Source: an uncultured Cytophagales bacterium
GTDB lineage: Bacteria; Bacteroidota; Bacteroidia; Cytophagales; JAAEPT01
Direction of reading: 5' to 3'
Assembly (NCBI GenBank): GCA_964350605.1
Contig: CAYGKP010000001.1
Location: forward strand, 1 to 39,936
DNA: 39,936 nt
Below the pieces are notes generated by a model. It did not search any database. It was not told the origin of the DNA and saw nothing but the letters and a program-made list of their open reading frames with translations. Every line of letters begins with the position of its first letter. Within the stretch, counting starts at the first letter, position 1. The position numbers and the translations under genes are program-made. This document shows, piece after piece, positions 2,446-23,440 of this stretch.

Positions 2446-2574
2446 TCTAGCTTGCTTACGACAGGCACTCGATCAGGCCGCAGCACATCGACAAGAGGGT
2501 AAACGGGTGGGTCCCATCATACTCATAATGGATGTCCGAGAATCTAAAACCTATCAGATCGTTTTCCAGGGTTG

Positions 2575-2694
2575 CTCACAAAAGTGATCCATATGGTAGA
2601 ATTAATACGAATTGAACATTCCCAATTTTAAACCCCTTTTTGTTGCGTACAAATTGAGTGCATATCGAAACAATTGATTTATATGTAATCAAAT
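2575..2694. repeat. Left copy of the ~120-bp imperfect direct repeat bracketing the accessory block
   Basis: Hand alignment to 23119-23237 gives about 17 differences (including 2-3 indel positions) in ~120 aligned nt. Shared strings include ctcacaaaagtgatcc, cgaattgaacattcc, atcgaaacaattgattt and aatcaaat. Weaker similarity continues about 70 nt further left (2507-2574 vs 23043-23118). Confidence 0.75.
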
Positions 2695-2718
2695 TTTAGC
2701 ATTCCTGCTGTGGTACTA

Positions 2719-2880
2719 CTACTCCTCTTCTTCACCTCGGTGCTCTATATCTCGTAAAGGTTCCTCATATATTCTTGGAAGACCCTCATCATCATATATC
2801 GGAAACGACTTCCAGTCTGAAACCTTGTAGTCTTTTAGACCATAATACGGTTGTGCCTCTGAGTAAACATTCCCAGTGGA
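2719..2880 (-). pseudogene. Orphan 3-prime fragment homologous to the C-terminal tail of the 401-aa HExxH protein gene
   Basis: This is 53 open codons with no start codon, bounded upstream by TAA. It reads STGNVYSEAQPYYGLKDYKVSDWKSFPIYDDEGLPRIYEEPLRDIEHRGEEEE*. The 401-aa C-terminus reads TYPGTQPYYGLKDYKVSDWKSFPEYEEDGIPRVYAEPLPGITHP*. The gapless nucleotide alignment 2765-2861 vs 3937-4033 is roughly 75-80% identical by hand count. Confidence 0.6.
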
Positions 2881-3008
2881 TTAATAGCTCAGAGCGTATC
2901 CAAAGGGATATCCAACTCTTCACAAAAACAGCCGTCATACTTGAACGCCATCGCAAAATGGGGACCAACCTTGCTTGTTGCCTTCCCGTTCACATAACGC
3001 AGTCGGTT

Positions 3009-3404
3009 TTAGTAGACCTCGTCCTCCGAATCATCAAAGAGGCGATAATGCCAAATGCCCACCCTAACTCCTGCTCTGAACCTGCCTGTTTCAGTATACC
3101 TACACTGACAGCCAGCTGTGCTGAAAAAATATGCTCTACCCTGCAAGGAGTCATCTTTGAATCTTAAAAACGCTCCTCTGTGACGGCAGGATACGCAGAT
3201 CATCCTGCCCACATGATCGTGAGGTTTGAGTATCGGGTCATCTGTGTCAAAAACCACAAACGTCCCTTGCCTGAGTTGATTCCGGTCGATATGACCACCT
3301 TTTCTTGGCCAGATTGAAAACGGACTACATGATGACGCGCAAATGGAGATCAAACAAAAAAGTGTCACCTGCCTCATGAAGTCGGATGAGCGGATTATCT
3401 TCAT
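3009..3404 (-). CDS. Small lipoprotein with MORN-variant (YwqK-like) repeat pattern; possibly truncated; candidate immunity protein
   Basis: Track ORF of 131 aa. The N-terminus MKIIRSSDFMRQVTLFCLISICASSCS looks like a signal peptide plus a lipobox-like ASSC. The tail RAGVRVGIWHYRLF has G-x-W spacing. The in-frame TAA (3009-3011) is followed by 39 more open codons (to TGA 2889-2891) reading NRLRYVNGKATSKVGPHFAMAFKYDG..., which continues the Y-x-N-G-K repeat pattern. Confidence 0.6.
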   Translation of the reverse strand: MKIIRSSDFMRQVTLFCLISICASSCSPFSIWPRKGGHIDRNQLRQGTFVVFDTDDPILKPHDHVGRMICVSCRHRGAFLRFKDDSLQGRAYFFSTAGCQCRYTETGRFRAGVRVGIWHYRLFDDSEDEVY

Positions 3405-3439
3405 TGAGGCCAGAGGGACTGCGGAGCACTTGCCATACC

Positions 3440-3967
3440 CTACTGCCCATCACAGTCGCACCCCCTATATCCAGAGAGCCCAAAACCATGATTGTTATTC
3501 TTGTATTGAGGCTTACCACTTTCATAGCTCACCTTGGTCGCGCTACTCTCACCAGTTTTTTGATTTCGCTTCGTCGTTCTCCATGTTCCTATTGGAACCC
3601 CCTTATGATATTGCCCTTCCTGGATAATAACACAATGGTCATCTAACCCGTTAATGAATAATGCTTTCCCATGGGGAATACCGCGTCTGAAGGTGACAAT
3701 TGCTTCAGTAAACACCGTCTGAACCTCATACTTCGGCATATATGATTCTTTCCAAACTGGACCATTGCAGGAAAACCCCTTCATGACCCACACGCCTGTC
3801 GGAAGGCTGTTCTTGTCGTATTGGTTTACTCCACGTCCATAGTCTAGCCGACCACTCGCACAGCAAGTTGCTATTAGCACTGTGAGTGAGCCAAGCAATA
3901 ATAGCTTAAGGGTGCGTGATGCCAGGTAAAGGCTCTGCATAGACTCTTGGGATACCATCTTCTTCAT
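3440..3967 (-). CDS. Small lipoprotein with MORN-variant (YwqK-like) repeat pattern; candidate immunity protein
   Basis: Track ORF of 175 aa. SRTLKLLLLGSLTVLIATCCASG looks like a signal peptide plus lipobox (IATC). Repeat-like strings by eye: PTGVWVMKG, IPHGKALFINGLDD, GQYHKGVPIGTWR, VSYESGKP. The start is uncertain (ATG at 3967, 3958 or 3940), and every option overlaps the upstream gene end (3906) by 35-62 nt. Confidence 0.65.
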   Translation of the reverse strand: MKKMVSQESMQSLYLASRTLKLLLLGSLTVLIATCCASGRLDYGRGVNQYDKNSLPTGVWVMKGFSCNGPVWKESYMPKYEVQTVFTEAIVTFRRGIPHGKALFINGLDDHCVIIQEGQYHKGVPIGTWRTTKRNQKTGESSATKVSYESGKPQYKNNNHGFGLSGYRGCDCDGQ

Positions 3968-5111
3968 ATTCCGGAAACGATTTCCAATCTGAAACCTTAT
4001 AATCCTTCAAGCCATAATACGGTTGTGTACCTGGATAGGTAAAAAGTAAGGTTTCAGCGATTGGATCAGTTGGGTTATACGTATCGTATTTTGCTCGGAA
4101 GCTTCTAGTTGCGGGAAGCAAATACAAAGATTGATCAATCGTTGTATCAGGCAGCTGATGAGTTGAATCCATTTGAGCTTGTAAGGCATCGACCGACACA
4201 CCAAAAACATTAAGAAACTCATCTTTAAAGCTCACCGAAAACTTCCTATCCTTCGGATGTGTATACCACTTTAATATATCCAGCGGGAGTGACGGGCTGG
4301 CTAGCGTTCGATACTCTAATCTTGTATTCAGCTCCGAGTTGATCGGCTTATTGTAGGCCGTTACAGCGTGATATTCAGGCCAATCGATCAGCACATCAGT
4401 CAATGCTTGGTACGGATCTAGATGCCAAGTCTCATGAACTCCTACTGCATTGAGAAACTCCTCCTCACTGCAATTATGAAATCGGCTGTACTTATCATTT
4501 TTCTCCTCTACCCACGTCTCCGTATCCCCAATAGTAACGACAAAGGGCTCAACCGAGAAGACACCACCGGTAAAGCCAAATCGATTGATTTTTCTCCCTC
4601 CTTCCAAAATGACTCCGAACTTTTGTTTGAAGGAGTAAATCCCATACTTCACGGATGGATGTTCTCCAAAATCATCACCCCCTGTAATGAGAAAGTCAGT
4701 ACCTGTTGGGAGCGGAGTGTCGCCCAGCGCTCCCTCGGGTGGTTTTCCACGCCGAAGCCTAATGACCATCGGATGATCCTCCCAAAACTTCCACCTGATC
4801 CGTCCCATGGGTGTTTTGTGCATCGCATCACCGATTTGAACAACACCCTGATCAACGTCACTTAGTGGAGTTGTCGAACTGACATCCTCCTTATCATAGA
4901 AAACTAAGTTCCCTCCAGTAAAAGTGGTTTTTAAAAACCTCCCCCCCGGACCAAACTCTTTTAGACCCGTGTATTTCACCTTATCTGAAAAGACAGGCTC
5001 AATATTGGTCCCAGCCAGGTAAATTTTTGTCAGAGTCCTTCGCTGCTCAACCGTTAAGGAAGAAAGGAAGTTGTTCAGAGCACTCCTTTGTTCATTTGTA
5101 AGGGTAACCAT
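3906..5111 (-). CDS. Hypothetical 401-aa protein with HExxH zinc-metallopeptidase motif; candidate effector
   Basis: Track ORF. HETWH is encoded at 4422-4436 (verified by reverse-complementing atgccaagtctcatg). No signal peptide (MVTLTNEQRSALNNF...). It starts 4 nt after the upstream giant gene stops. Its last ~35 codons are duplicated at 2765-2861. Confidence 0.8.
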   Translation of the reverse strand: MVTLTNEQRSALNNFLSSLTVEQRRTLTKIYLAGTNIEPVFSDKVKYTGLKEFGPGGRFLKTTFTGGNLVFYDKEDVSSTTPLSDVDQGVVQIGDAMHKTPMGRIRWKFWEDHPMVIRLRRGKPPEGALGDTPLPTGTDFLITGGDDFGEHPSVKYGIYSFKQKFGVILEGGRKINRFGFTGGVFSVEPFVVTIGDTETWVEEKNDKYSRFHNCSEEEFLNAVGVHETWHLDPYQALTDVLIDWPEYHAVTAYNKPINSELNTRLEYRTLASPSLPLDILKWYTHPKDRKFSVSFKDEFLNVFGVSVDALQAQMDSTHQLPDTTIDQSLYLLPATRSFRAKYDTYNPTDPIAETLLFTYPGTQPYYGLKDYKVSDWKSFPEYEEDGIPRVYAEPLPGITHP

Positions 5112-5115
5112 ATCG

Positions 5116-8100
5116 CTAAATGATTAAAGGCTCTTCGTAGTCGTTTTGAATCCCCCCCGAGTTCACTACGTCCACCTTGAACCGGTGGTAAATCGTGTCA
5201 CTTGAGCCATTCGTGGCAGGCAAGAAATCTCCCAGCTCGTATTCAATTGTCTCTTCATTGGACGATACTTGGTTAACCAGTGCCCACTGACCGGCCTCTG
5301 TCATCTTGTACAGGTAGTAAGTACCCGACTTGCACGTACTAGGCCAACTGAGTGTGGGCAGGATCGGGTCTGGCGTCGCGTTGGGATCACCACCATCGTA
5401 GGAAATCGGCGGCGCTGGCGGTGGCGCATCATCAACAATTCGCGTCCGAATAATTTCACTGGGGATAGATGGCACTACCTCCGGCTCCTCATTCTCATTA
5501 ACAATAAACCTCAGAGCCACCAGCCGATAGAACAATGTCTCGGCATAAGGGGGAAACTTCCCTTCTAAGTCCGAGAATACATCTGCTACCGAATCGACAG
5601 AGACAGTAGTGGCTAGCTTCATAGTTCGAACAGTTCGGGCCTCCGCTTCAGTGGTTGCTCGATACATCCGGATACTCGTCACGTTTTCTTCTGGCAAGTA
5701 ACTGCTCAACTGAAAAGCGACTCGTGGCAGTGCCTGCGCTCCACTTGATCGCGGACCAATCACTTCCAGCGTCTTCAACTTTGGCGGCGGCGGAGGCAGG
5801 GCATGCAAGAGTTTAACCGGCGCACTGACAGCGGAAGGGTTGGAAGTCTGCCCATCCGAGGCGATCTCACGCGCTCTATAGAAGTACAACTGGGAGTGCA
5901 TTGCCCCATCAAGCTTGTAATCCGTGAAACGAACGAACACCTCGCCACTTTCAGCATAGCGCCGAGCCATCGGGAATGGATTGAACTCCGAAGATTCGAT
6001 CGGCAAAAGCTGTCCACGTGAGTCCACCACCTTGGGCAGCTCGGGGGAGGTCTGTCGGCCCTGCTCAAGGAATTCGAAGAGAACCGGCTGTGTAGTCAGC
6101 GGGGTAAAAGCATTCGAAATCGCCACGAAAGCTTTAGAGATCGCCGAAGTACCAAAGCCTGGATCATTTTGCGGCAGGATATCATCGGTTAGAAGCTCAC
6201 CACTGAAAGTTGGCGACTTATCGGGCGGCGGAATGAAGTATGAGTTGGCTCCGTACGACTTGAACGCACCTGGAGTGGTGTCTCCACTACCCTGAACATC
6301 CAGGTTGGCCAAGCCACTCCAGTAGTTCGAAAGTACCGACTGATCTTCCAGAGCAATCAGATTGCCTTTTACATCCTCAGCCGTTTCTGTTTCGAACAGG
6401 CTATTCAGCAAAGCTTCCTGGCTTGTACGGTAAAAAACAAACCCATAAGGCGGACGCTCCGGCTCATTAACTTTGATATCGAAGGTGTAGGAGGACTTTC
6501 CGTATCGATCCGGACGCGTAGCATAAAGCGGCCCGATTGGTGGGTCCGGCGGAATGGGGTCAACAATCTTTTTCGCGACAAGAAGGGAGGCTGGTGATAG
6601 GTCTGAGGAAATGTTGTTGATGCTATCACGCGAACGCGCTGCCATCAAAGACACTCTTGATAGCTCACCCTCACCAGGTAGTATTTGCACGCGCTGGAAC
6701 AACCCAGGGAGCTGCTGTGGCTCAGCTTCCAGGTACAATCTGTATCCGGGGTGAAAATTGACCGATACGTCTACTCCCGTCTGAATAGGGTCCGAATCGT
6801 AGTTAGCATCGACCGCATAGATCTCCAATGGATTCTGAGAAACGATCGTTACAACAGAGAGCTCTTTGGTCTGATTGGGATCATATTGACCTGTGCTCGA
6901 GAAGCTGATCCGTGCCGTGCCTTGATACCAACTCACCCCTGTCTGAGGATGATCAGCCAGTGAGGTTCCCGAGGCATAAGCGATGTGGTATAGTCCACGA
7001 AACACCTGAACCTCCTGTAAGAGACCTTGTGAGTCTGGTTCGAAAACTGTCTCGGTGATCGGATCTACCTGCGCTGGTTCAAAAATACCGCCGATGAACC
7101 TTGTCTCTTGGTTCCCGTTCTCGTCTTCGAAAACCTCTTCGTGATTGCTTAGGTCAATTAGGTCAACGGTGTAAGCTAGTTTTTGCGGCCAATTGCTTGG
7201 CTCCAGCAGGTTCTCGACCATAAGGAAGCACTCGTCTGCTCCTGGAAAGGAATACTCTTTGCGTCCTAAGAAAGTCCTATTGCTTGATGGATCATCGGTC
7301 GCTGTTTGCTCAACGGCTTTGATTTGAATCTGAGGCTCGGTACCCGAATTGAGTTGAAGCACTGAGAATACTTCTTGACTCTCGTTGGTCGATAGGACAC
7401 CACCAAGGTACTTCCCCTCCTCGCCTACAGATATCTCGGGTATAACATCTGATGATGGGTTCGTGCTGTAGTTGCGATAGAACCCGGTGAGGAGCGTGAT
7501 ATCTCCTTCACCGTTATCAACGACTTCCTTGATTGTGCCTCGAACACTGTCAGGTGGGTCCAACCGAAAGAAGAAATCGATCTTATCGGCCCGACGGTAA
7601 GCAGACTGGTGAACGTGATTCCAGAGAAAGGTCACGCGTGTCAGCTCAGGCTCATCAAGCGGCTGATTGATCCGAGCCAGCAACTCGTCTTGTTCCGCCT
7701 GGCTGGTTAGAACCAACGGCTTCTCTTTTTGGATATACTGAACAGCAAAATTAGCTGGCGGCAGGAGAGTATTCCGTAGCGGAAAGTCCGTTAAGTCGGT
7801 TTGGGCGAGCTGGCCAACCGGAGATACTCGTTGGAAGATATTAACTCCGTAGAGCGCGTACTCATGGACTCCACTTTCGGTCTCTACATGCGTGTAGAAC
7901 TCTTCCACGGGCTGGGAAGGAAAAAGTAACGACTCAGGAATCTCGATTATCTCCGGTTCGTTGAATTCATCCAACTCGACGATTTTTTGGCTGTTGTATT
8001 CGTCGTCGAATAATAGCTCTGGCTTTCTCCACTCACTCTCACCCAATAGGCGGTACTCCAAACCCACACGTAGCGGAATACTAGCCTCACTCATGTCGAA

Positions 8101-11100
8101 CTCGGCACCAGCGAGTTCAGAAAGCACGTTGATTCTATTCCCTCTAGCTTCGTATTCAAACAACTGAATCTTCGGATCCTCGGCTTGGGAAAGGCGTATA
8201 AACCGTTGATCGGTCTCCCAACTGTAGCCCTGTGGATCCGTTAGTTCCGTTTGAGAGTCGTCAGCGTTTAGAATGAATAGCCCATAATCGACTGGTTCTA
8301 GACTCGGGCTGTATGGGAGGCGCTCATCCTCCATTGAAGTTGGAAGGCTTAACTGCACATGAGAAGTCTCAAGATTTGCAGGAAAACCAAAAAAAGTACT
8401 GCCTGGATCGGCTCCTGAAGTGTACACGACTGAATAGATGTATCGATTGCCCTCGCTACCGATCAAATTATCTGGTGCGCACAATGTGGGCGCCCAAGCG
8501 CCTCCGCCAAGTGCGGTTAGAGCCGGAGAGAATTGCTGAAGGGCTCCGTCATTCTCGATAGGTGATGAGTCTGCTGCAACCGTACCTTCCTCTTCGTCCA
8601 GTTTCCACCAACCTACCAACCCTTCCGGGTCGATCGATTCGGCGCAACGTCCATACGAGAAATGATCTAACTGCTCCTGACTGCTGAGAGATCTATTGTA
8701 TATACGTGCATGGCTTAAGCAGCCACGATACTCCCTAGAATAGCCATAATCAGAAACGCCCTGAGGCCACCCTCCTAAGGCCAGATAAGCCAAATCGTTC
8801 AATTGTGCAGTCCCCGATCCAACGGGACCTACAAATTGGGTCAACTGATCACTGATCTGGAAGCGCCAGCCCTCACCTGTGCTGGGATTAAATGCTTTTG
8901 TGACGGATATAAATAGCCACTTTGGATCCAAAAAAGAGGGGAACCGAACCTCAGTACCCTGATTACCCACAGAACCGGCATCAAAGGCTAGCGAGTACAC
9001 TACCTCGTCAGCCAGTAAATCAACCCATTTAATAACGCGTACCGCTAGACGCAGCTCAACAGCGAAGTACTGAAACGATGTAACCAGTGCAAATGCGACA
9101 TCACCTTGCTCCCTGATTGTAATTGAGGAAGGGCTTGAGGTTATTCCTTGCCGCATTTCTGGTTTGATCCATATCTCAAAAGTCTGCAGGTTGTCTTCAT
9201 ATGCAGCGTTCGCCGGAATTGACACGCGTTGATCGTCGGCTGAAAAGCACAGCGAATACTTGTTCTCATTGTCAGATATGTCTCCACAAGGTGAACCTAC
9301 CCAAGCTCCTCCTCCCAGTTCTGTCAACTGGTAATTGTAATTCACCAGGTTAGCAGGGTTTTGGATGGTTGAACTGTCGGCTGCCAAGTAACCCTGTGCT
9401 TCGTCCAGTTTCCACCAACCCACAAGTCCAGTAGTGTCAACAGTTTGGGTGCAACGACCCAGCAAGTACTGATCTCGTTGTTCTTGTTCGCTTAGCGAAC
9501 GGTCGTATATCCTGATTTGGCCGATGCACCCGAGATAGTCTTTGTTGTTATTTTGGTAGATGTCATTCCTCAAACCACCCAGATAGATCGGGTCATAATT
9601 ATTGATCCCACCATAGAAAGAGCCTGAGGGTGCTCCCGGCAAAAAGATGGCATCTTGGTCGTTAAGAATTATCCTCCAACTCGCCGGACCAGTCGCCGAA
9701 ATCGATACGAACATCCACTCAGGGTCGTCCTGAGTTTCATACTCACTTTCTAGAGTTTGATAGCTGTTCCCCAATTGCACGAAAACCGAATAGCGCACCT
9801 TATCGACCGTCTGATCATACCATTTGGTACACTGCACAATAAGTCCGGCAGGCGTTCCATTGACTGGATTGTAGGTACTCATCTTAGAGATGAGTACCTG
9901 AGAGGCATAATACAAGTCTGAGAAGTTCACTGGTGGGGCGGTGAACTGTTCATCTAGATCTGGCTTAAACCATACCTCAATTGATTTCGCGTCATAGTAC
10001 TCGTTTCGATGGCCAATGTGAGCCCGATGACCTGCTACGCTCATGCAAAGCGCATAATCCAGTTCTTCCTCTGCCAGATCGGTGTCGATGTAGCCCAAGC
10101 CCAACATTCTCGCGACGTGAAAATCTTGCGCCACCGTTCGGAGCATATCAAGCGAGCTGATCTCTAACGCATTGGCCGCCTCTGGGTCTTCTCCATCCAG
10201 GGTCACAAGTTCCTCGCCCCCGTCCAATGGATAGCTCTTCAACCCGGTAGGGTTCGTGGAGTCCGTGCTTAGTTCAAGGTATTCGATTACCCCTGATTTG
10301 AGACCCTGCGAAGTAGTCCACTTGTCTTTGTAGTTGTCTACCCGCACCCTCGCACCATCGTTGTAGTGGGGCCATCTCTTATCGACCAAAAAGCGCTCGG
10401 GATTCTCAAGGCGCTCGAACACTTCTTCGTTATCCAAGCTCAAAGCAAAAGCCCCAAGCGACTTCCACTTCTCGGCTTCATTGACGGCGTGGAAGTAGGG
10501 CTCGTATAAGACGAAATGAGCTGAATTGACACGGGCATTCTCGGCTTTCCATCGCAAGCCACCGATGTGTTCGCCAAGTAGCTCAATGGTATCTGTAATG
10601 GCGGTCGGGTAGTCTTTAGATTTTCGAAATGCAATACCCGCCTCCAAACTGGGATATGGTTCGCGGTTTACTCCCTCCATGAGAAGAGACCCATTGTCCT
10701 GAGCCTGAACGTTTAGCTTTATGCTGAACGCTCGATCGGGTCGATCCAACCAAAAGACCAATTCATCCTGGTACTGGTCGAAAAAGTTCTGGCGTGTTGT
10801 TCCACTCGCGAAAATGTTACCCCCCACTGAAGCCTCAGCTACCTTATACTCTGACCTGTTGAGGAAATAGAGGTAAATTACGTGAGTGGGGTTGGAACCA
10901 GGTCCAGCCAGTTGAAGCTGGAAGCGCCACTGCATAACGTTTCCCCTACGCAGGACTTGAGGTATCACATTAGGGTCCAAAAGGTCGACCTCCAACGTCG
11001 TTCCGGGGTAAGGGATATATGGCGTGCGATACAATCGGACAAAGTCGTTTTCACGGTTGTACCCGTAGGTAGCTTCGTACTCCTGCTCGCTAGTGAGGTT

Positions 11101-11256: not shown

Positions 11257-11262
11257 AACCGC

Positions 11263-14200: not shown

Positions 14201-17200
14201 GATGGAGTCGCAGTGAACTGAGGATCAACCTCAGGCTTAAACCATGCTTCGACGGTTTTTACATCCAGGTACTCCGCGATATGTCCAACTTCAACCTTCT
14301 GACCTGAAGCATTGAAACACAGGGAAGTTCCTTCTTCTATCAACGGCAAGCCTTCCTGCCCGCCACACGTTTCTTCTACCCAGGCACCGCCGCCAATTTG
14401 TGTGCGGCCACTCGTGTAACCGGTCAGTACGCCATCTGAGTTTGTCCATGCCAGCCCCGAATTGGTCGCCTGGGTTCCCTGTAACTCGTCCAGTTTCCAC
14501 CAGAGACGAAGGTTCGTAGTATTGGCATTCACTGCACAACGTCCCCCTTCATACTGATCATCAATCTCTTGGGCGGAGAGAACAAAATCCTGGTAGTACT
14601 GGATGTGATCGACATACCCCTCAAAGTCTCCCTCTCCGAGGATGATTGGGCCGTCGTTGTATACATCTCCGGGTGTTCCTGTCGACTCTGACACCCACGT
14701 TTCAACTGAAGGCTGACCGTTTACAGTCAAATAGTAATCGGCTAGTTGAGTACCTGTTCGCTGAACAGTGATCATGTGCCAACCTTCAGCCTCCGCAACA
14801 ACAAACCTCTTGACGATTCGGATGTGTCCGTTCCAACGGTTGTTGTAGTGAAGCTCGACAAACAAGCTATATCCAGATGCCTGAGTCGGAGCCAGAACGG
14901 TCCGAATAGTAATCCCATGACCATCGGAGGCCATCTTCTTGAATAACACTTCCAAGTGGTCGTTGATATCTTGACCTACCTGTCCATTGACTAGCGTCTC
15001 ATCAATCGGTGTCTGCTTCAACCATGCAACGATCGAAAAAGAGCCGCCGAATGTGAACCCACCATGGTTGGGGCTTGCAACTTGTACAGACTCCCCAACT
15101 TGAATGTGTAGTGCAGGCGAACTCTCCTCTTCGGTTTGTAGACCGCAAGGGTCGACCCTGTATGTCAAACGATAAGCCGTCACCGGTTCGGGAAACCGAA
15201 TCGAAACTGTCATCGGCTTTTCCAACTCGTCCTCTTGGAGTGCTACAAGTGCCTCCGTTAAGTTGGTGCCAGGGGCATACTCAGACTCCTCTTCGACTAC
15301 TTGAATGGCCTTACGGCTTGAGGCAGATGGAATGTCGATTTTGATCCAGGCCTTCCGATCAAACTTCCATTCGCCCTCGCGATAGCGTCGGAAGCCGTTG
15401 GATTGGCCTTGCCAGTTCAAGCACTCCCAGTCGACCAACGGCTGGGTACAAAACATCAAGCTCGCATTGAGGCCATAGTCCTCAACGATATTGGTCTCAT
15501 CAGGTCCGGTACCCTGACTTAAGAAGGCAAAGGGGTTTCTTGCAAGAATTCGCAGATGTGTCTTTTGTCTTGGCTGCTCATGTGCCTGCCAAGCACCGAT
15601 ATGCAATAAGCTTGCTGGGACAGAATCTAGGAAGGCTTTGATCGGCAATGCCTCGTATGGGTCATATGGCACCCAAATATCCCCGACAGGGTCGCGGGTA
15701 AGAATTTCAACTTTGTCGAGGTGAAAGCGATGTTGAACTTGGTCGGAATGCCCTCTACGAGGAGAAATCTTTACCACATTATCGGTCGGAACGAACCTGC
15801 CTGTCATTCTTGACAGTACTGGATCTTTGCCCTTCGGCTTTAGACTATAATTAAATTGGATATCGACGAAGCTATCCTGCGGAATGATCGTCTCTTCGAG
15901 CAAGTCAAACCAGGATTCCTCAAGTGCACTTCCCAGATAAGCGATGGGAAACTCCTCTAGCGTTGTCATGTTCAACGCCTTCACTGCATTGCTCGGCTCA
16001 AGAATCTGGAATGGCTCAAGTTGGCGTCGACGGTCGAACACCCATCGAAGCGAAACTCGGATACCTTTCTTCTTCCGCTTAAACGGAATCTTGATCTTTA
16101 CCTCAATGTACCCTTCGATAATGAAAGGTCTGGGTGCTTCCGCTCCCAAATAGGCCCCCACTCCAAATCCGAATCTGAATTTCCAGATTCCGATTTCTAG
16201 CCCCCCGGCGATTAGAACGTGACCACCAGCTTGAACGGGTTCGGTGCTAATGCGCACGCCCATATCCAGGTAAGCATATAGTCGAAAGCGAATCGGGCCA
16301 AAACGTTTATCAAGATTGAAACTTGCACCTGCGCCCAAAGCCACCCCTCGAGCTGAAAGCTGCAGGTATGCATTCAAATTGAATACTCGGAGTATTCTGG
16401 CACGGATTCGCTTGGAGGGCGGGCTGGCCTCACCAATGTTGAGGTACCACCCCCCCGGATTCTGAAAGAAGAATCCGAACTCCATGTTGGCGGAAATATC
16501 GGCGATCACGCCGCTCGACTGTGGTAATCGAGCCTGAACACCAGCACCACCGGTAATTGACTCTGGGCTAACAGCCAAAAAGGCACTGAAAGGCGGGTCC
16601 TCTCGATCATCCAATCCGACCTGTCGACGGAGAATACCCGCTTGACCTTGGAGCAGTAAGGTCTCGGGAGCGGTTAGTAGTAGGAATACTTTGCTTGAGA
16701 AAATTCGAGGGTCTCCTTTTGTGGCAATTGCTGTGCCCGCTCCTCCTACAAAGCCTGGCTCTTTTGAGAACTTGTCGACGGTGATGCCCTCTTTCGGCGG
16801 GGCTTTGTAATACTGCCACCAACTTGCTGAGTCCGCTAAGCCAATGGCCGATTTATCAGCGATGTACCCACTGCCGACTAGGCCTCGAAAGCCATAAATT
16901 CCTAGCCCCGTCGGACCTAGGGGAATTGGAGTTGGTAAATTGATTTTTGCATCGACTAGAAAAGAAGGATCATCTGGGACGTACGAAATGTCACCTTCAA
17001 ACTTGAGCTTCAAGCGAGGAAAGCTAACACCGACGGCTCCTCGATACTCACTAACCGAGCCTCCTTGCTCCTGGCCAAGTAGGGCCAAATACCCCTCAAT
17101 AATCGCAAGAGCTTGCTCTTTAGAGGCCGTGCCAGGGATAATTAGGCGTATCTCAAGACGTTGAATGCGAAGGAATGAGTGGAAAGCCTTTCCGGCACCT

Positions 17201-19056
17201 GCATCGGTATCAATTGTGAAAAAGAACTGGATGCCATCCCCTCGGACGTCTAATCCCGCTGGCTGAAGATTCAAGCTTCCATCAAAACCGAAATAGGCGT
17301 ACTGTCGAAGTTGGCCTTCATGATCTTGTTCATAGGTCCCGAGTGTCAACGCGCTGACCTGTATTTTGGCAGGGCCCAGTTTCAAGTCGAACGTGCGCGG
17401 CAAAAGCTGTACGCCGCCATCGAACTCAATCCTGCCATTCGAGTAGATGCGTAGTTTGGAGATCGGAATCTTACCAGGGAGCAACTTATCGGCAAGTCCA
17501 CCAGGGACAGGAGCTGTGATCTCCAGCTCCCCAGCTACTTCAAGAGCATAGACCTCGCCGAGCTTTTCCAGAGAAAGACTACGAAGAGTAAGCTTGAAGA
17601 CTTCGTTCTCTTCCGAGGGGAAAGAAAGCACAAGCCCTTCTGGCTCAATAGCTGCGAACGTAAAATCCCCGTTTTCGAAAAACTGAATGGTAACCTCCAA
17701 CTCCGCGGGATTCCCTTCTGAGTCTTTAACATTGAAGTTCTCCGGAAAATTGAGCGTGGCTCTGGCGGAAGAGCGCACCAGACTACCCTGACGAAACTCC
17801 ACCTCAGCTTCTTTCAACTCCAGACCGAAGCCACCTAAGGTCGCATCGTAGGAGTCATATTCATCCTCACCTACTACCCGAGTTTCCAGTCCGATCGTCC
17901 CACTGAAGCCACCTGAGCCGATGATGAGATTACGCCCTTTGAGAATGGCTTGCTCCGTAGGGTTCCCATTCTGCGTTAGGATAGGCGGAAACCCAACTTC
18001 GATCTCCTCGATGAAGACTCCTCGGAAGTCAGCCGGATAACCTGCATCCTGAATGGGTTGAATATTGGTAGTTCGGGAAAGGTCTAGCCAAACATTGTCG
18101 ACTTGAAAAGTGAAGCCCGAGTTACCGATTTGAACTGTAGGGCCAGAAACTCCCTGGTCAGTATCGATACCCGTTGTGACCTGAGTTGACTGATCAATGC
18201 CGAAGCTGCCACGTGTGTCAAAAGTGAATTGAGCGGGCTCTGTTCTCAGAACATACTTAGACGGCTCGGCGTAAGGTTCGCCGCTTGGCTGAAGCGGCAG
18301 TAAAAAGCTTCGAGGAATGGCAACCTCCAAACCAAGTGAAGTGCCCGCCCTTACTCTCGGAACTAGCATCTCCTGCAAACGGCTCAAAATTGGCAGTCCT
18401 CCTCCGTCGTAAAGGCGATTGATGGCATCAAGTCCGCTCGACAGATCGGAAGCAGGCAGCACGTAGATCGTAAAGAGTATCTCCCGAACAGACGGCAGCG
18501 ACCCACTCGCGTCGATCTGTGCTATTAGGTCATCTATCTGGTCAGAAAGCTCAGTTGCTGACGGCATGGATACCGAGCTACCCCCGTATTCTGCATTGAT
18601 TTTATTGACTAGGCTTTGAACATCCTCAGAGAGCTCAATCTCTAAAACCGCGTTGGTCAGCAAGCGCTCGTCTAGCGGATCGGTTACTGTGAGCAGGAGG
18701 TCGAAAAAGGACTGCGGCGAGCCATCGAAGCGCGAAAATTCGAAGTCGTCGAAGTAGCGGAGGATCTCCCAATCAAACTGAAGGGTGAGGTCGAATTCGG
18801 TGGTGTTGGGAAGGGTGCCGGGATTAATGGAGAATTCCAGATCGAGGCCGGGAACCGTGAAGCCAATGTTCTGGAAGGCGATGAGTTGGACGTAAAAGGA
18901 ACGCGTTGACCCGGCGGTGTTGACGAATTGAATCTCCTTAACAAAGAGGTTCGGGATCAGCGCATCAAGCCCTCCGTCGATGAAGCTCAGGGCCTCGGGC
19001 AAATCGTCTGCAGAAAGCAGCGAGGTGACAGGTAGGTAGTTGTGGGTGGAGGGCAT
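11263..19056 (-). CDS. Giant hypothetical protein (2597 aa): ~1300-aa beta-rich N-terminal region of unknown family, three LamG modules, ~490-aa C-terminal region
   Basis: An uninterrupted 7.8-kb ORF. The LamG array covers aa ~1320-2110 (nt 12727-15099), with repeated ...R(L/I)YNR..S..EQ...GRCA...GLIGWWKL(D/N)E..G..A.DSS...GGGAW...C. The N-terminus MPSTHNYLPVTSLLSADDLP has no signal peptide. The start ATG (19054-19056) overlaps the upstream stop as TAATG. No catalytic or NTPase motif was recognised. Confidence 0.9.
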   Translation of the reverse strand: MPSTHNYLPVTSLLSADDLPEALSFIDGGLDALIPNLFVKEIQFVNTAGSTRSFYVQLIAFQNIGFTVPGLDLEFSINPGTLPNTTEFDLTLQFDWEILRYFDDFEFSRFDGSPQSFFDLLLTVTDPLDERLLTNAVLEIELSEDVQSLVNKINAEYGGSSVSMPSATELSDQIDDLIAQIDASGSLPSVREILFTIYVLPASDLSSGLDAINRLYDGGGLPILSRLQEMLVPRVRAGTSLGLEVAIPRSFLLPLQPSGEPYAEPSKYVLRTEPAQFTFDTRGSFGIDQSTQVTTGIDTDQGVSGPTVQIGNSGFTFQVDNVWLDLSRTTNIQPIQDAGYPADFRGVFIEEIEVGFPPILTQNGNPTEQAILKGRNLIIGSGGFSGTIGLETRVVGEDEYDSYDATLGGFGLELKEAEVEFRQGSLVRSSARATLNFPENFNVKDSEGNPAELEVTIQFFENGDFTFAAIEPEGLVLSFPSEENEVFKLTLRSLSLEKLGEVYALEVAGELEITAPVPGGLADKLLPGKIPISKLRIYSNGRIEFDGGVQLLPRTFDLKLGPAKIQVSALTLGTYEQDHEGQLRQYAYFGFDGSLNLQPAGLDVRGDGIQFFFTIDTDAGAGKAFHSFLRIQRLEIRLIIPGTASKEQALAIIEGYLALLGQEQGGSVSEYRGAVGVSFPRLKLKFEGDISYVPDDPSFLVDAKINLPTPIPLGPTGLGIYGFRGLVGSGYIADKSAIGLADSASWWQYYKAPPKEGITVDKFSKEPGFVGGAGTAIATKGDPRIFSSKVFLLLTAPETLLLQGQAGILRRQVGLDDREDPPFSAFLAVSPESITGGAGVQARLPQSSGVIADISANMEFGFFFQNPGGWYLNIGEASPPSKRIRARILRVFNLNAYLQLSARGVALGAGASFNLDKRFGPIRFRLYAYLDMGVRISTEPVQAGGHVLIAGGLEIGIWKFRFGFGVGAYLGAEAPRPFIIEGYIEVKIKIPFKRKKKGIRVSLRWVFDRRRQLEPFQILEPSNAVKALNMTTLEEFPIAYLGSALEESWFDLLEETIIPQDSFVDIQFNYSLKPKGKDPVLSRMTGRFVPTDNVVKISPRRGHSDQVQHRFHLDKVEILTRDPVGDIWVPYDPYEALPIKAFLDSVPASLLHIGAWQAHEQPRQKTHLRILARNPFAFLSQGTGPDETNIVEDYGLNASLMFCTQPLVDWECLNWQGQSNGFRRYREGEWKFDRKAWIKIDIPSASSRKAIQVVEEESEYAPGTNLTEALVALQEDELEKPMTVSIRFPEPVTAYRLTYRVDPCGLQTEEESSPALHIQVGESVQVASPNHGGFTFGGSFSIVAWLKQTPIDETLVNGQVGQDINDHLEVLFKKMASDGHGITIRTVLAPTQASGYSLFVELHYNNRWNGHIRIVKRFVVAEAEGWHMITVQRTGTQLADYYLTVNGQPSVETWVSESTGTPGDVYNDGPIILGEGDFEGYVDHIQYYQDFVLSAQEIDDQYEGGRCAVNANTTNLRLWWKLDELQGTQATNSGLAWTNSDGVLTGYTSGRTQIGGGAWVEETCGGQEGLPLIEEGTSLCFNASGQKVEVGHIAEYLDVKTVEAWFKPEVDPQFTATPSNYFDLYEASQIVVSKMSASGPTQLPNGIVISVTKWLDQPTDKVKYAVFVQMGSHYANREVEFEQLEDPEWVFVSAAFNGSWRIIINSQTAYSFPSGPAGGLYLGVENDQPLFIGSLRSDIFANNNKEYLGCIGQVRLYNRELFESEQRAQYELGRCAQTIIANGLIGWWKLNEQEGTVAADSSPLDNNGVLQQFAPALTALGGGAWATEICLPPGEPPARGGALCMSDPDHRVSIPAITPYKNNIRAFEIWAKPVLDTGVTSSPDYTALIDRGEVVFTIFSSTTYQGNWLRLLVKTIKWLDSSTNEIVYSFYVEAGTALPPGGPPPDLRYPADKDPEWLFISASGVGFNDELDTDFTSKWNFQIQDQPVIGVYPLGPFATSNLVDVAHIHLGNSPDFVTWLPNKDFDGCLSQARLYNRAFSIEQQLAHFRRGRCAEDIERAGLIGWWKLDELEGTVAHDSSPYANHGILEDFAPALTALNGGAWQYELCGLQPSCLRTLTFDGGLDNMTQEAVLSVLGGGAEYREVSLIELCWETEATRRFNEQQVEINETREEQLAYFGLGLQNVLQPVWRPNGAYAIRIEGRDVVEGNTSNQSYVFGFKTGGPIRHYFDAVEAAQQVELENLENEGLYSLKPYLDFGRSYPSVDGNLIGAKPLYYKQGHNDLRVFFKQPGTYNLFGDWPANLGSPALANKLDAIVKETETNQSLSLTSESDGWIREEEASYSLDTQVIHNMAVNSLPDGANCTKFQFDLQKGYYFFLSPPDLRREKLYTVHLVSQFEGVEHELHKYAVQTSRYGSFAEHIGSIDLGEGREAIYNLEHIQKDQTVLAQILADSLAPEDPLRQEYAMTFDRIMRAGLGLDALEVPTTTEVNIFRIPGSGSFTYGMLVRSPEPLCDPRAREQIFSQVLRITLPGQPNLGPGFTPVIIPSKDCTQVFITTTYNVLPFDEIELHFQEMIYNGYQFVAKGSAVTRPVSLLIP

Positions 19057-19544
19057 TACTTCACAGTTCTTAGTGAGTCAACGTAATCATGCATTGAGAC
19101 CATTAGATTCTTGGACATAATGACTATTATACCTCCACTTTCTTTCTCATATATGTTTATATACCTGTAGTCACTTTCTAAATATATTTTTGGACTATAC
19201 CTTTTCTCAGATAGTATCCTGTACCTGAAGTGTGAGATATCACAACTATCTCTTATAAGGAAAGAGTTAATATATCTTCCTTCCGCATTTAGGTACTTCC
19301 TTTCTGTTATTTCTGAAAAACAAGGAGTAACAAATTGAAAATATATATCGAAATGTCCATCCCACTTATCAGGGACCCAGCTTTCGTCTCCCTTTTCGTA
19401 ATTTCTAGATACTTCAACCACAAATACAGTATCTGTGCTAGCCAACCTTTTATTATATACTAATCCATTGCTAGAGTTTTCTAGGTAAAAAACCTTAACC
19501 TCATGACAGGAGGACAGGATAAGTAGTATCGCAAAGTATTTCAC
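19056..19544 (-). CDS. AT-rich small lipoprotein (162 aa); candidate immunity or partner protein for the upstream metallopeptidase module
   Basis: Track ORF. MKYFAILLILSSCHE looks like a short signal peptide plus lipobox LSSC. Sample 60-nt lines here give about 35-37% G+C by hand count. It starts 5 nt after the 1052-aa gene ends. Its stop shares one nt with the giant gene ATG. Confidence 0.75.
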   Translation of the reverse strand: MKYFAILLILSSCHEVKVFYLENSSNGLVYNKRLASTDTVFVVEVSRNYEKGDESWVPDKWDGHFDIYFQFVTPCFSEITERKYLNAEGRYINSFLIRDSCDISHFRYRILSEKRYSPKIYLESDYRYINIYEKESGGIIVIMSKNLMVSMHDYVDSLRTVK

Positions 19545-19549
19545 TCGAA

Positions 19550-22500
19550 CTAATCAGTATCTGTAACCGGGTATCGGTATGCAATCAAATTATCAAACAT
19601 CTGTTTGAACTGAATTGGAGAAAACCTCCGGTTCTCAACTGCAGTTAGCGGAGGAGAGGGGTACATCATATTCTCGTACTGATCAACAAAATCAGTATTA
19701 CCAACTGTCAAATTCTTATTGTACTCAGAATGAGGCTTAATATCGGATATGTTCTCAGAAGGCGGAACTGAGGGCGGACTAGATAAGTAAAAATTCTGAT
19801 TCAGCTCATAGCTATCCTCAGTATCCCGCTTGTTTAAATAGTACAACCTCTGATTACTTAGTGGTTGGCCAAATACCTCGTCAAATTGTTGACTAGAAGT
19901 GCCAGATCTCCTACCCATTTGAGTGTGCAGAGTATGCTTTAATCCAGCCACATGTCCGAGTTCGTGATAAACAGTATACCGAGCAATATTAGTATTCAAT
20001 AGCGGATGTGAGGTGGCAATTCCACCAATTGAATGTAAGTTGATTAGTGCTGGTCCAAGGTCTTGATCTTTGATAAGATCATACCCCTCCTTGGCAAGAT
20101 AGAAGGCAGGAAATGGCCCTCCATTTGTTGAGAACGGTATGCTAAGTTGTATAAGATTGTCTACTGGTGCTTTCAGTATCGAAAGGCCTCTGGTCCCAAT
20201 CAACTCCTCCCTTTCTGCGGGATAATCATAGCTACCATCTCTCGACTTCTTAGCTAGCAGATCGTTTACCTTCTCAGTTGGATGTCTCTGTCCAATATTA
20301 TGAACCCATGGGGAACGGCCCTCCACGATATTAAGATCATCCTTTAAGAAAGTCTTTCCTTGAGATTCTATGTAAGTCTTTGCATTATTTATCTTTTCCA
20401 AATCGATATCATCATCATTAGCAAAATTCTCGACGAACAAAACGGACAATGAAAATGTGCCAGCCAGTAGGTCATGAGCAATTTCTTCAAAAGTATCTAC
20501 CACTTCTATTTGATCAATCAAATATCTTATCCTGTAATTTTTTCCCTCATAAGTAGCAGTAGCTAGGTCTGGCAAATATTCAAATGTGCTTTCAGTATCT
20601 AATGGTTCTTTGCATTGCTCTTCCAAGAAATCCACTGGATCAAACTCTATACTTGTATAGTCCTTCATGGGTGCATCTTCGTTTGGAAGACGATTATAAA
20701 TGTATGTAGGCTTGTGAACATATACCTTGCCAATTCGGACGAAAATAACTCTCTCTTCATTCGGCTGACCTTCATTCTGGATATAAGGCCAAATCCCAAT
20801 GTATTCATTCGAGCTCTCAGGATCTACAAGCTTCCATCCTACTCCATGAACTGAACGCGCTCTTGGATTGTAATAGGCTACGTGCCAATTGGCTGTCAAA
20901 GAGGATATTTCAACAGCATTATCTGCAATCCATTGAGAGTCAATCTCCAGGCTAACAATAGAAACTTGCCTGGTAAGTATACCGTCCTGGTCAAGTTGTG
21001 AGAACACAAACAAGTGCTGTAGGCCCAATAAGCTTGGCACTTGATGAGGCGAAAGAACCAAATCGCTACTTTCCAGATTCCGGAGAAAATTATTCTGATC
21101 TGAAAATGCCGGAAGAGTAAGATTGTACTCAGGTCCAACTAAAGTCGACCACTTAAAGCCCTCTGTGGGTGATAGCAAGTAATGTATCTTGTCCTCCTCT
21201 ACGACAAGAACAGTAGAAACAAAACCAGAAAAACCCAACTCTTCCATTCCATCAACAAATCGTTGATAGTGCAGATTTGCTGTCTGAAACCTAGGCTTAG
21301 AACTCTCAGAGAAGTCCCATGGAATCACATCGCTAATTACCTCTGGAAGTACGAATGTGTTGTCGAGGTAGTAGTTAGCATTAATCACAGGAGAACTCTT
21401 AGGCGGCGCGACCTTCTCCGGGTCGATCCGCTGGATGTAAGACAACTTCACATAACTGGCAATCGAGTTACTGCCTGCAGCCGCAGTGGCCAGTTCGATC
21501 TCATCGGTCCAACCACTCGTAAACGTTGGCTCGATGTACCTGGCCTTGTGACGCGGCACCTCCGGGAAGCGCTTGTAGGGGCTCGCTCCATCCAGATAGA
21601 CCAAGGGCTTGGTGTTGTCGGCCTCTGGTAAAGAGAGGCGTATGTGCGTCTTGCTATTTGCAACCCCCGAACTCAACTCCGAACCCTCAATGATGTGAAT
21701 CGGCCAGTCATTGCTTAGGTAGGCTCGCCCCGAAGGGGCCGTGTTCCCATCGAATGATAGATTGACGTTGACGTTGTAGCCTGCGTAGCTACTATAGTTA
21801 CTGTAGTAGTTGAGGCTATAGCTGTTCTCATTCCGAATGTCCAGATACACCCGGCCGGGGTGAGCGAACTTGGTCAACACGTCGGTGTAGAGGTCTTGAT
21901 CAGTCAGGGTCGAAACCGTGGAACCCTGCAAAACTCGAACACCACTACGTGCGTGAAGGCCATAGAATGCTGCGGGGTCGATGTAGTGAATCACCTTCTC
22001 CCTCGCCGCACGGTTCTCCAGTGCGTCAGTTGCGTCTTGAGGCGTAGCGATCGTTGGGGCGGCCGTAACGGTAACCAGGCCATCAGAAGCCCGCAGCTCC
22101 CCAAGCGTAGGATTGCTCCCATATGCCTCCAGAACGATTTCAAAACCAATCTCGCTGCTGGCCGCAAACTCACCCAAAGTCTGGCCTGCTCGAACACGCG
22201 TCGGCTTGAACGCTGTTAGATGGTTAAAAAAAAGTGCGTCGATCTTCTCAGAATCAAGCTTTTGATCGTCACCAGTTGCCGATGCTGTGAAATGCAGCCC
22301 CAGTGTTTCTTCGGTTGGATCAACCTTAGCGACACCCAAAGCGTCTGCATAAGCTGCCTGGTTCTCGTGTAACTGTGCAGCCAAGTCATTCGCTGTTGTC
22401 AGCACGATCGCCCCTGAGCCTTGGACTAAACTACTCTTCGCAACACCCCTGTAGACAAAGTACTTGACCCGAAAAGGCAGGTGAGGATTGTGATTAAATG

Positions 22501-22708
22501 GTTTGATAACAAGGTTAAGCAGAGTCGAGGACTGCTCTTGAGCGTACAGCAATCCTCCTACACACGCGATCACTGGTGCGCCTTGACCCGATGATACTGT
22601 ATGCTTGGACGATAAATGAAATTCAGTACTTGAAGCGGGCCCATAGGCCTGGCCAGTGCTTTGCACATCCAGTAAGCTGGGGTCGGTAAAAAAGTAGGGC
22701 TTGGCCAT
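19550..22708 (-). CDS. Chimeric 1052-aa protein: GC-rich N-terminal ~430 aa of unknown family + AT-rich C-terminal ~620 aa ending in a metzincin-type zinc metallopeptidase motif
   Basis: Track ORF. HELGHVAGLKH (HExxHxxGxxH) is encoded at 19934-19966 (verified by reverse complement). Composition changes near 21350-21450. Sample lines give about 58-63% G+C at 21.5-22.1 kb and about 33-43% at 20.4-21.3 kb. No signal peptide (MAKPYFFTDPSLLDVQ). Confidence 0.85.
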   Translation of the reverse strand: MAKPYFFTDPSLLDVQSTGQAYGPASSTEFHLSSKHTVSSGQGAPVIACVGGLLYAQEQSSTLLNLVIKPFNHNPHLPFRVKYFVYRGVAKSSLVQGSGAIVLTTANDLAAQLHENQAAYADALGVAKVDPTEETLGLHFTASATGDDQKLDSEKIDALFFNHLTAFKPTRVRAGQTLGEFAASSEIGFEIVLEAYGSNPTLGELRASDGLVTVTAAPTIATPQDATDALENRAAREKVIHYIDPAAFYGLHARSGVRVLQGSTVSTLTDQDLYTDVLTKFAHPGRVYLDIRNENSYSLNYYSNYSSYAGYNVNVNLSFDGNTAPSGRAYLSNDWPIHIIEGSELSSGVANSKTHIRLSLPEADNTKPLVYLDGASPYKRFPEVPRHKARYIEPTFTSGWTDEIELATAAAGSNSIASYVKLSYIQRIDPEKVAPPKSSPVINANYYLDNTFVLPEVISDVIPWDFSESSKPRFQTANLHYQRFVDGMEELGFSGFVSTVLVVEEDKIHYLLSPTEGFKWSTLVGPEYNLTLPAFSDQNNFLRNLESSDLVLSPHQVPSLLGLQHLFVFSQLDQDGILTRQVSIVSLEIDSQWIADNAVEISSLTANWHVAYYNPRARSVHGVGWKLVDPESSNEYIGIWPYIQNEGQPNEERVIFVRIGKVYVHKPTYIYNRLPNEDAPMKDYTSIEFDPVDFLEEQCKEPLDTESTFEYLPDLATATYEGKNYRIRYLIDQIEVVDTFEEIAHDLLAGTFSLSVLFVENFANDDDIDLEKINNAKTYIESQGKTFLKDDLNIVEGRSPWVHNIGQRHPTEKVNDLLAKKSRDGSYDYPAEREELIGTRGLSILKAPVDNLIQLSIPFSTNGGPFPAFYLAKEGYDLIKDQDLGPALINLHSIGGIATSHPLLNTNIARYTVYHELGHVAGLKHTLHTQMGRRSGTSSQQFDEVFGQPLSNQRLYYLNKRDTEDSYELNQNFYLSSPPSVPPSENISDIKPHSEYNKNLTVGNTDFVDQYENMMYPSPPLTAVENRRFSPIQFKQMFDNLIAYRYPVTDTD

Positions 22709-23118
22709 TGCGGAGATAACGTTCGATGGCGATCAAACCGTATTAGTGTAGTTCAATCGACCCAACTATGATATCGAATTCTGCCCCTAGGACAACTTCA
22801 CTATGTTAGTGTTAACAATATAATAACATTAGCTACGCAAATATCCTTACTCTAATAAGTAGGAGGCTAGGGATTATGCCTGTGTATGTCCAAGGAGGTA
22901 CACATTCAATATTGTCGGCTACCAACATTTGGAGAAGTGGCTCAAAACCGCTGAGGCCTCACTCTGAAAGAGTTGATCGTTATGAGAAAGCCATCTTTGT
23001 CTACCCTCGCCCATGGCCAGATACGAGGAGGCCATAAGCGAATGGGTCTAGTCATATGATGGGCAGCATGAAAGCTTGGAAATGATTCAGGACGTATCCA
23101 GATCATTTTTGGAGATCT

Positions 23119-23237
23119 CTCACAAAAGTGATCCGCATGGCAGAATTAGGCCGAATTGAACATTCCCCACTTCAAACCCTCTTTTTTGTGTACAACTTGA
23201 GTACAAATCGAAACAATTGATTTCTATGGAATCAAAT
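23119..23237. repeat. Right copy of the ~120-bp imperfect direct repeat bracketing the accessory block
   Basis: See the left copy (2575-2694). This copy lies 411 nt upstream (in the minus-strand sense) of the 1052-aa gene ATG. Confidence 0.75.
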
Positions 23238-23415
23238 GATTATTTCGATATACCGAATGAATGCCATATGATCGACTGCTCAATCATATTATATCATTCC
23301 TATCATTTTCTTTCCATAGAACTTACCAAATCCTGCTAGGGTCACACAGCATATTCACAGGGCATGGGACAGCCATTTGCTATGCTCTGCTTCCAGCCAA
23401 CCCTACTATCGAGAA

Positions 23416-23440
23416 GAGGCCCGCTCAATGAGCGGGCCTC
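23416..23440 (-). terminator. GC-rich hairpin downstream of the CBM9-like gene; candidate intrinsic terminator
   Basis: GAGGCCCGCT (23416-23425) pairs perfectly with AGCGGGCCTC (23431-23440), with a 5-nt loop. It lies 26 nt past the stop of the 23466-24206 gene. The U-tract on the minus strand is weak (UUCUC). Confidence 0.5.

Follow-up and report, generated by a model that had tools for sequence, protein, structure and literature searches.

Direct repeats around a giant-protein operon are probable integrase-distal arms of tRNA-Arg-targeting genomic islands in an uncultured Cytophagales bacterium

Genomic islands that are inserted into tRNA genes by a dedicated integrase form a broad class that was reportedly reviewed by Williams in 2002. 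Among the closest described examples is the 10K GI of Riemerella anatipestifer, a tyrosine-integrase island at an Arg-tRNA gene with a 53-nt repeat for which excision has been shown experimentally (PMC6764341). Related themes are known from IntDOT of the Bacteroides element CTnDOT, a heterobivalent integrase with arm-type sites (PMC2817482), and from the tycheposons of Prochlorococcus, which are accreted island arrays at tRNA genes (bioRxiv 10.1101/2020.12.28.424599). Here we describe an element of this well-documented and ordinary kind, a tRNA-Arg-targeting tyrosine-integrase genomic island, in a stretch of 39,936 nt from an uncultured Cytophagales bacterium (hereafter the window; positions 1-39936 of the 50,389-bp contig C1 in an assembly of 2.36 Mb, 241 contigs, and ~96% completeness). 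Our subject is an imperfect direct repeat (copies A and B; Table 1) that brackets an operon for giant proteins and that an earlier note had read either as the att-like ends of a 20.4-kb island or as a duplicated promoter or leader.

Similar to 10K GI, the islands of this genome combine a tyrosine integrase beside a tRNA-Arg gene with a direct repeat of the tRNA 3' end, atypical G+C content, and accessory cargo. They differ from it in the length of this repeat (14-15 nt versus 53 nt), in their near-orphan integrases, and in the presence of two tRNA-Arg isoacceptors plus an intragenic pseudo-site within one genome. Regarding composition, the 20-kb block with the giant-protein operon has a G+C content of 48.9% against 57.3% for the genome, the ~28-kb island to which we assign it has 47-49% between flanks of 57-58%, and all islands together span 42-49% between flanks of 55-58%, as is typical of genomic islands.

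The direct repeat itself is real, as had been seen by eye. Whole-genome BLAST aligns positions 2575-2694 to 23119-23237 with 85% identity over 120 nt (E 7e-32), and both MAFFT and a repeat finder recover the pair in direct orientation (2555-2694 versus 23099-23237, 81-85% identity). The repeat finder splits it into two stretches that are shifted against each other by one indel (2555-2641/23099-23185 with 78% and 2628-2694/23171-23237 with 85% identity), and the whole alignment amounts to ~81% identity over 140 nt with 85% over the best 120 nt. A chance origin of this similarity is excluded. The earlier note was also correct about a weaker extension of ~70 nt on the low-coordinate side, which MAFFT follows to about 2490/23026 and for which a hidden Markov model (HMM) of that part matches 2640-2490 and 23184-23026, and about the distances to the gene starts (154 nt from 2575 to 2421 and 411 nt from 23119 to 22708). 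Beyond this common part, copy B runs ~108 nt further on its high-coordinate side (23238-23345), and copy A is devoid of this segment.

What copy B leads up to became apparent from a second contig. Contig C164 begins with the reverse complement of window positions 1-115, forming an in-frame overlap of 110-115 nt with 96% identity inside the gene of an MmeI-like restriction-modification (RM) enzyme, and the target-recognition and C-terminal domains of this enzyme are found on C164. The order on C164 is MmeI C-terminus, a UDG-family gene, a thymidylate-synthase-like gene, MazG/MazG_C, a tyrosine integrase, tRNA-Arg(CCG) at 5031-5105, and sucC, with integrase and tRNA located about 3.5-5 kb past window base 1. 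The 15-mer GTGACCCTAGCAGGA from the 3' end of tRNA-Arg(CCG) occurs exactly twice in the 2.36-Mb genome, once in the tRNA gene itself and once in the window (23331-23345) at the start of the additional segment of copy B, 138 nt before the motif of this copy. The presence of this unique tRNA 15-mer at both places indicates that the unit is a composite island of ~28 kb, and as far as its sequence tells, the 15-nt repeat is a classical attL/attR pair, that is, the direct repeat by which a tRNA-integrating island is recognized. The 20-kb block is therefore likely to make up the outer portion of a single composite island of ~28 kb at tRNA-Arg(CCG), to which the MmeI gene belongs as well. The proposed order of this island would be tRNA, integrase, MazG/ThyX-like/UDG genes, MmeI RM system, copy A, giant-protein operon, copy B, att repeat, and a flank with a CBM9 gene, with copy B as its working outer arm. 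On this model, we predict an attP junction in which the proximal end ...AAACAAAGGTAAA is joined via GTGACCCTAGCAGGA to TTTGGTAAGTTCTATGG, and an empty attB site that would read as window positions 23346-23360 of the minus strand followed by GTGACCCTAGCAGGAGTCGAACC.

The original idea that A and B are themselves the att-like ends of a 20.4-kb island, excised by recombination between them, was right in that the repeats belong to an integrative island, that the block between them is accessory judging by its G+C content, and that the window has no integrase (confirmed by tblastn), which instead lies outside of it. It did not hold with regard to the ends: A and B are not attL and attR of a 20.4-kb block, because the true att sequence is the 15-nt copy of the tRNA-Arg(CCG) 3' end and the island measures ~28 kb. 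Though A and B are indeed direct repeats and bracket a block of low G+C content, this reading is very improbable. The unique tRNA-derived repeat pairs copy B with the tRNA gene beyond MmeI and not with copy A, which has neither an att core nor the adjacent spacer and hence is not a possible site-specific partner, and tblastn found no integrase remnant between the two copies. Efficient RecA-dependent recombination usually requires a minimum of ~25 nt of identity. The longest exact match between A and B is 17 nt, making them a poor substrate for homologous excision, so that loss of only the 20.4 kb by this route should be rare.

Table 1. Features of the window (positions on contig C1) and the copies of the arm element in the genome
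Feature	Position	Strand	Remarks
MmeI-like type IIG/IIL RM gene (N-terminal, helicase-spacer, and methyltransferase domains)	1-2421	-	cut by contig end; continues at C164:2-649 (target-recognition and C-terminal domains)
M3, weaker extension of copy A	2490-2554	-	MAFFT, HMM
Copy A (M1 + M2), internal truncated arm	2555-2694	-	134-154 nt upstream of, and followed by, the MmeI-like RM gene
S-S dimer of copy A: TATGCACTCAA TTTGTACGCAA	2643-2664	-	most degenerate among the five distal-arm dimers
Giant-protein operon, assigned as cargo of the outer module	3009-22708	-	1052, 162, 2597, 2046, 401, 175, and 131 aa
M3, weaker extension of copy B	23026-23098	-	common to copy A; MAFFT, HMM
Copy B (M1 + M2), complete outer integrase-distal arm	23099-23237	-	upstream of the seven-gene giant-protein operon (LamG matches only)
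S-S dimer of copy B: TTTGTACTCAA GTTGTACACAA	23186-23207	-	repeats phased 11 bp; candidate integrase arm-type sites
Module U of copy B (spacer from att core to arm motif)	23238-23330	-	alignment; HMM
Distal att core: GTGACCCTAGCAGGA	23331-23345	-	last 15 nt of tRNA-Arg(CCG), C164:5031-5045
G+C-rich hairpin, chromosomal flank just beyond the island	23416-23440	-	after CBM9 gene (23466-24206; Pfam CBM9_1)
Copy C	C12:10597-10746		followed by a type II RM plus SNF2 module: N6/N4 methyltransferase, BglII-like restriction endonuclease, 428-aa open reading frame, SNF2 helicase, NOV_C protein
Copy D	C132:5974-5896		first half only; followed by Gabija GajA/GajB (GajA E = 1e-191)
Copy E	C2, about 18975-19135		diverged; adjoins the end of an antisense RHS-type giant operon

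BLAST and nhmmer searches of the whole genome revealed only five related copies (A to E), each of which forms the non-coding arm, on the side away from the integrase, of an island whose tyrosine integrase targets tRNA-Arg. The earlier note had allowed that the repeat might turn up at many unrelated intergenic sites, but these searches place all copies at island arms; a dispersed repeat of the REP (repetitive extragenic palindromic) or MITE (miniature inverted-repeat transposable element) type was rejected on this ground, given that the copies are so few and that no target-site duplication surrounds single copies. The arms are modular, and their parts differ in distribution: the second half of the repeat (module M2) is found only in A, B, and C and not in D or E, whereas module U, the ~108-nt segment next to the core, is common to B, C, and D only, as seen in the alignment and from a U HMM that matches just these three. 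As a neutral yardstick we used the 4-fold degenerate sites of the integrase genes on contigs C12, C132, and C164, where int12 and int164 are 69% identical and int132 shares 43-44% with either of them. Module U of B and C is 68% identical and thus close to the 69% of these sites, while M1 and M2 with 81-85% identity between copies lie above this level; by this measure, module U looks neutral and M1 plus M2 look constrained.

The most constant part of the arms is a pair of short direct repeats (the S-S dimer; consensus TTTGTACnCAA x2, phased 11 bp) that is present in every arm. Among the distal arms, B, C, D, and E all place the first repeat (S1) 138 nt from the core start, although the spacer of E has diverged beyond recognition. 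The proximal arms carry a dimer in the same orientation that abuts the integrase start codon, with 64 nt from S1 to the core on C164 and C132, and C12 aligns in the same register. A search with the regular expression TG[TC]AC.CA...TG[TC]AC.CA yielded six matches genome-wide, all six in arms. Similarly, an HMM trained on the three proximal arms alone gave eight further weak matches (E 0.07-3.9), which comprise the same-orientation dimers of E, B, C, and A, reverse-strand arm sites, and one unrelated site on contig C17. A repeat motif distinct from the core therefore occurs in both arms at fixed positions, as is characteristic of arm-type sites. Similar to the P and P' arms of lambda Int and the arms of IntDOT, these are short non-core direct repeats in both arms at fixed distances with one set near the integrase gene; different from those systems, no N-terminal arm-binding Pfam domain and no excisionase gene are recognized here, and the S-S sites are candidates only. 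By analogy, the S-S dimers are probably integrase arm-type sites, bound by the N-terminal domain as in lambda- or IntDOT-type systems. An intact arm would then consist of the att core (the copy of the tRNA 3' end), the spacer U of about 108-115 nt, the S-S dimer within M1, M2, and the cargo, and in an excised circle the dimers of both arms would flank the crossover site. This fixed 138/64-nt architecture provides a testable attP model for the integrase clade.

All three integrases (PF00589 + PF13102; C12:16254-17618, C132:969-2348, and C164:3603-4973) are 70-92% identical and lie at the far island ends in convergent orientation. On C12, a 7.2-kb island splits a gene for an SOS-response-associated peptidase (SRAP) into pieces at 9985-10536 and 17686-17888. 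The N-terminal part stops with ...HHRMPVVL at the distal junction, and the C-terminal part restarts with PAGSEKDWL... right past the integrase-proximal junction. Joining both flanks in silico restores a protein of 233 aa that covers SRAP positions 1-213/214 and scores 183 bits versus 155 bits for the truncated open reading frame, which fixes the arm as the very end of the mobile insert. The split gene is presumably inactivated. With 10 of 14 positions equal to the tRNA core, the inferred target GTGCTCCCAGCGGG is regarded here as a pseudo-attB. Just upstream of the SRAP gene lie hsdS and hsdR of a type I RM system, indicating that the C12 island landed within an existing defense neighborhood.

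On C132, the integrase is found next to a different isoacceptor, tRNA-Arg(TCT) at 850-924, just as the C164 integrase is found next to tRNA-Arg(CCG). The 3' 14-mer of tRNA-Arg(TCT), GCGACCCCATCAGG, occurs in the genome only at C132:911-924 (in the tRNA gene beside int132) and at C2:19122-19135 (beside copy E), and the far side of copy E shows core genes such as TypA/BipA and OmpH. Arm E on C2 abuts an RHS/Tc-like giant operon, while the matching tRNA-Arg(TCT), the integrase, and Gabija are located on C132. This arrangement suggests that C132 and C2 represent a second composite island built like that of the window, with its defense genes close to the integrase and a giant toxin-like operon in the outer part, though the contig ends of C132 and C2 do not join via overlaps. 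Arm D (C132:5896-6054) shares 74-89% identity with B and C and is thus nearer to them than its integrase is to theirs, which implies that arm and cargo were exchanged independently of the integrase. In addition, the att-like remnant of D, CCGACCTCGCCAGGA, differs from the adjacent tRNA-Arg(TCT). From these sequences, arm D together with Gabija looks like an import from a sibling type of island.

Copy A is different from the other arms in that it lies inside its island. It has the S-S dimer, M2, and M3 but neither a U module nor any core-like sequence at the 138-nt position. The stretch directly upstream of it (repeat families D1 and D8; repeat 2739-2855) duplicates the 3' end of the 401-aa gene without the rest of that gene, showing that the junction has been rearranged. 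Copy A would thus be an arm left behind by a module that is older or lies further inside, and this arm would have lost its spacer and att core. The simplest history, and the most likely route to copy A, is accretion followed by deletion: a second element would have accreted at the locus, either via integration at the resident attR or via a crossover within the arm (tandem or homologous), and a later deletion would have removed the integrase, core, and U module of this second element. Similar to what was described for tycheposons, this includes successive integrations at one tRNA gene, older modules pushed inward, remnants with partial att sites or lost integrases, and defense cargo. Unlike in tycheposons, the internal remnant retains the arm motif and not a partial tRNA, the integrase family and host phylum are different, and there are no replication or packaging genes. 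As a separate observation, the tail of the giant-protein operon contains direct repeats spaced ~1.17-1.2 kb apart (2739-2855 versus 3911-4027; also 2755-2784, 3927-3956, and 5125-5154), which together with the orphan end of the 401-aa gene are arranged in the manner of displaced toxin tips with immunity genes.

Several points weigh against the composite island with copy B as its arm as we have drawn it. The link between C1 and C164 rests on an overlap of 96% and not 100% identity, so that C164 could derive from a co-occurring strain, and the links C1-C164 and C132-C2 are both inferred. No relative outside this genome carries the arm, and all arm comparisons are between paralogous copies inside one fragmented metagenome-assembled genome; the arm DNA matched none of 12 further genomes from the family and nothing in phage or plasmid collections. 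The absence of M2 from D and E shows that this module is not required for an arm. One base of the SRAP target is unaccounted for at the C12 junctions, and a Pfam search of integrase residues 1-125 turned up no arm-binding domain.

The conservation of M1 and M2 above the neutral level, the restriction of the dispensable M2 to A, B, and C, and the position of A to D, each located in sense orientation ahead of its cargo operon (MmeI, the giant operon, methyltransferase-endonuclease, and GajAB, respectively), would also suit a promoter or 5' leader that travels with the cargo and drives it. A Bacteroidota-style promoter motif, TTG-N21-TCGATTTG, is present in M1 of B, C, and D. However, this motif has one mismatch, is degraded in A, and is expected by chance at a rate of 0.27 per kb and strand. 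As a check on the phylum, the SusD family was looked for in the genome and not found, which also counts against this reading; it is the integrase type that points to Bacteroidota. Within the shared part, sigma-70 scans detected no conserved sense promoter. The operon next to copy E is antisense to it, and copy B lies 411 nt from its gene. A leader acting as RNA finds no backing either, since Rfam gave no match in the window and the consensus fold contains one compensatory pair in 38 with an alifold covariation term of +0.12; a structured RNA was rejected on the same evidence. We therefore find it unlikely that M1-M2(-M3) serves mainly as promoter or leader, though such a role could coexist with arm function. 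The best sigma-70-like promoter of the region is TGGAAA-17-TATAAT with an extended TG at window positions 23288-23316 (minus strand); it lies in module U of copy B and is not conserved in C and D. A small protein was rejected because in none of the frames do the copies keep an open reading frame; B and C have an antisense frame of 30-52 aa that meets a stop after 12 codons in A.

Combining both functions, M1-M2 could be a portable "cassette head" in which integrase arm sites overlap the cargo promoter and move with the adjacent defense or toxin operon between islands. This idea draws support from arm D, which resembles B and C much more (74-89% identity) than its integrase resembles theirs (43-44% at 4-fold sites), but we consider it quite unlikely. 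If true, the internal arms (A with MmeI and D with Gabija) would be traces of cargo modules exchanged between sibling islands in an integron-like manner, and occupancy of the S-S dimer by the integrase would couple cargo expression to integration state. Similar to integron attC sites and to REP/MITE elements, the copies are imperfect repeats of ~60-150 nt between gene cassettes in a single orientation. Unlike for attC, the recombinases are not of the IntI type but Phage_int_SAM_5-type enzymes that score far below cut-off with XerA and integron-integrase models. An identity as attC was rejected, as inspection of the aligned copies revealed neither a RYYYAAC/GTTRRRY core pair nor an attC-like bipartite palindrome.

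Finding five arms and three integrases in a single genome implies that such islands were acquired repeatedly, and the islands carry no transfer genes. The conserved segment might thus be an oriT by which the islands are mobilized in trans by a conjugative element, as known for mobilizable genomic islands, and short inverted repeats are present (TTGATT-N7-AATCAA in M1 and GGATCACT/AGTGATCC in M2 of copy C). Yet a relaxase (PF03432) was not found in the genome while control genomes do score, no further copy of the element lies on any putative conjugative element, the plasmid and phage collections gave no match, and the M2 palindrome decays in A and B. An oriT is hence a most improbable explanation, and integrase-distal arms remain our preferred reading.

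Public data contain hardly any members of the integrase clade. A full HMMER profile search among 1.84 billion representatives returned four proteins at E <= 1e-30. Neither the single integrase nor an alignment of all three found a relative in the genome contig collection, the metagenome contig collection gave just a 30% match, 300 genomes of the order contained nothing at E <= 1e-30, and an index of 5.8 billion proteins contained only the integrases' own paralogues and one 29% match. The best outside relative, P0004, is encoded on a phage-like metagenome contig without tRNA or arm. About 90 nt upstream of the P0004 integrase start codon, this contig has a tandem direct repeat of TTTGCTGTAG x2 with a 12-bp period (L019:955-990), in a position analogous to that of the S-S dimer.

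If the giant-protein operon and the MmeI system are both carried by a single mobile island of ~28 kb, they would have a common context that bears on how the operon was acquired. The genome of only 2.4 Mb harbors at least three sibling islands at two tRNA-Arg isoacceptors and one pseudo-site inside the SRAP gene. Regarding the operon itself, Pfam gave only LamG-type matches, all in the two giant proteins, and PADLOC had no match for its five proteins other than the two giants.

The contig break in the MmeI gene lies near the target-recognition domain, and the 96% overlap (window 1-115 versus C164:1-115) includes amino-acid changes, a hint at co-occurring strains with different RM specificities. 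The segment that separates MmeI from the integrase, C164:852-3609 (minus strand), encodes a UDG-superfamily protein of 385 aa, a weakly thymidylate-synthase-like protein of 238 aa, and a MazG plus MazG_C protein of 334 aa. This trio relates to nucleotide metabolism and could be a defense or DNA-modification module.

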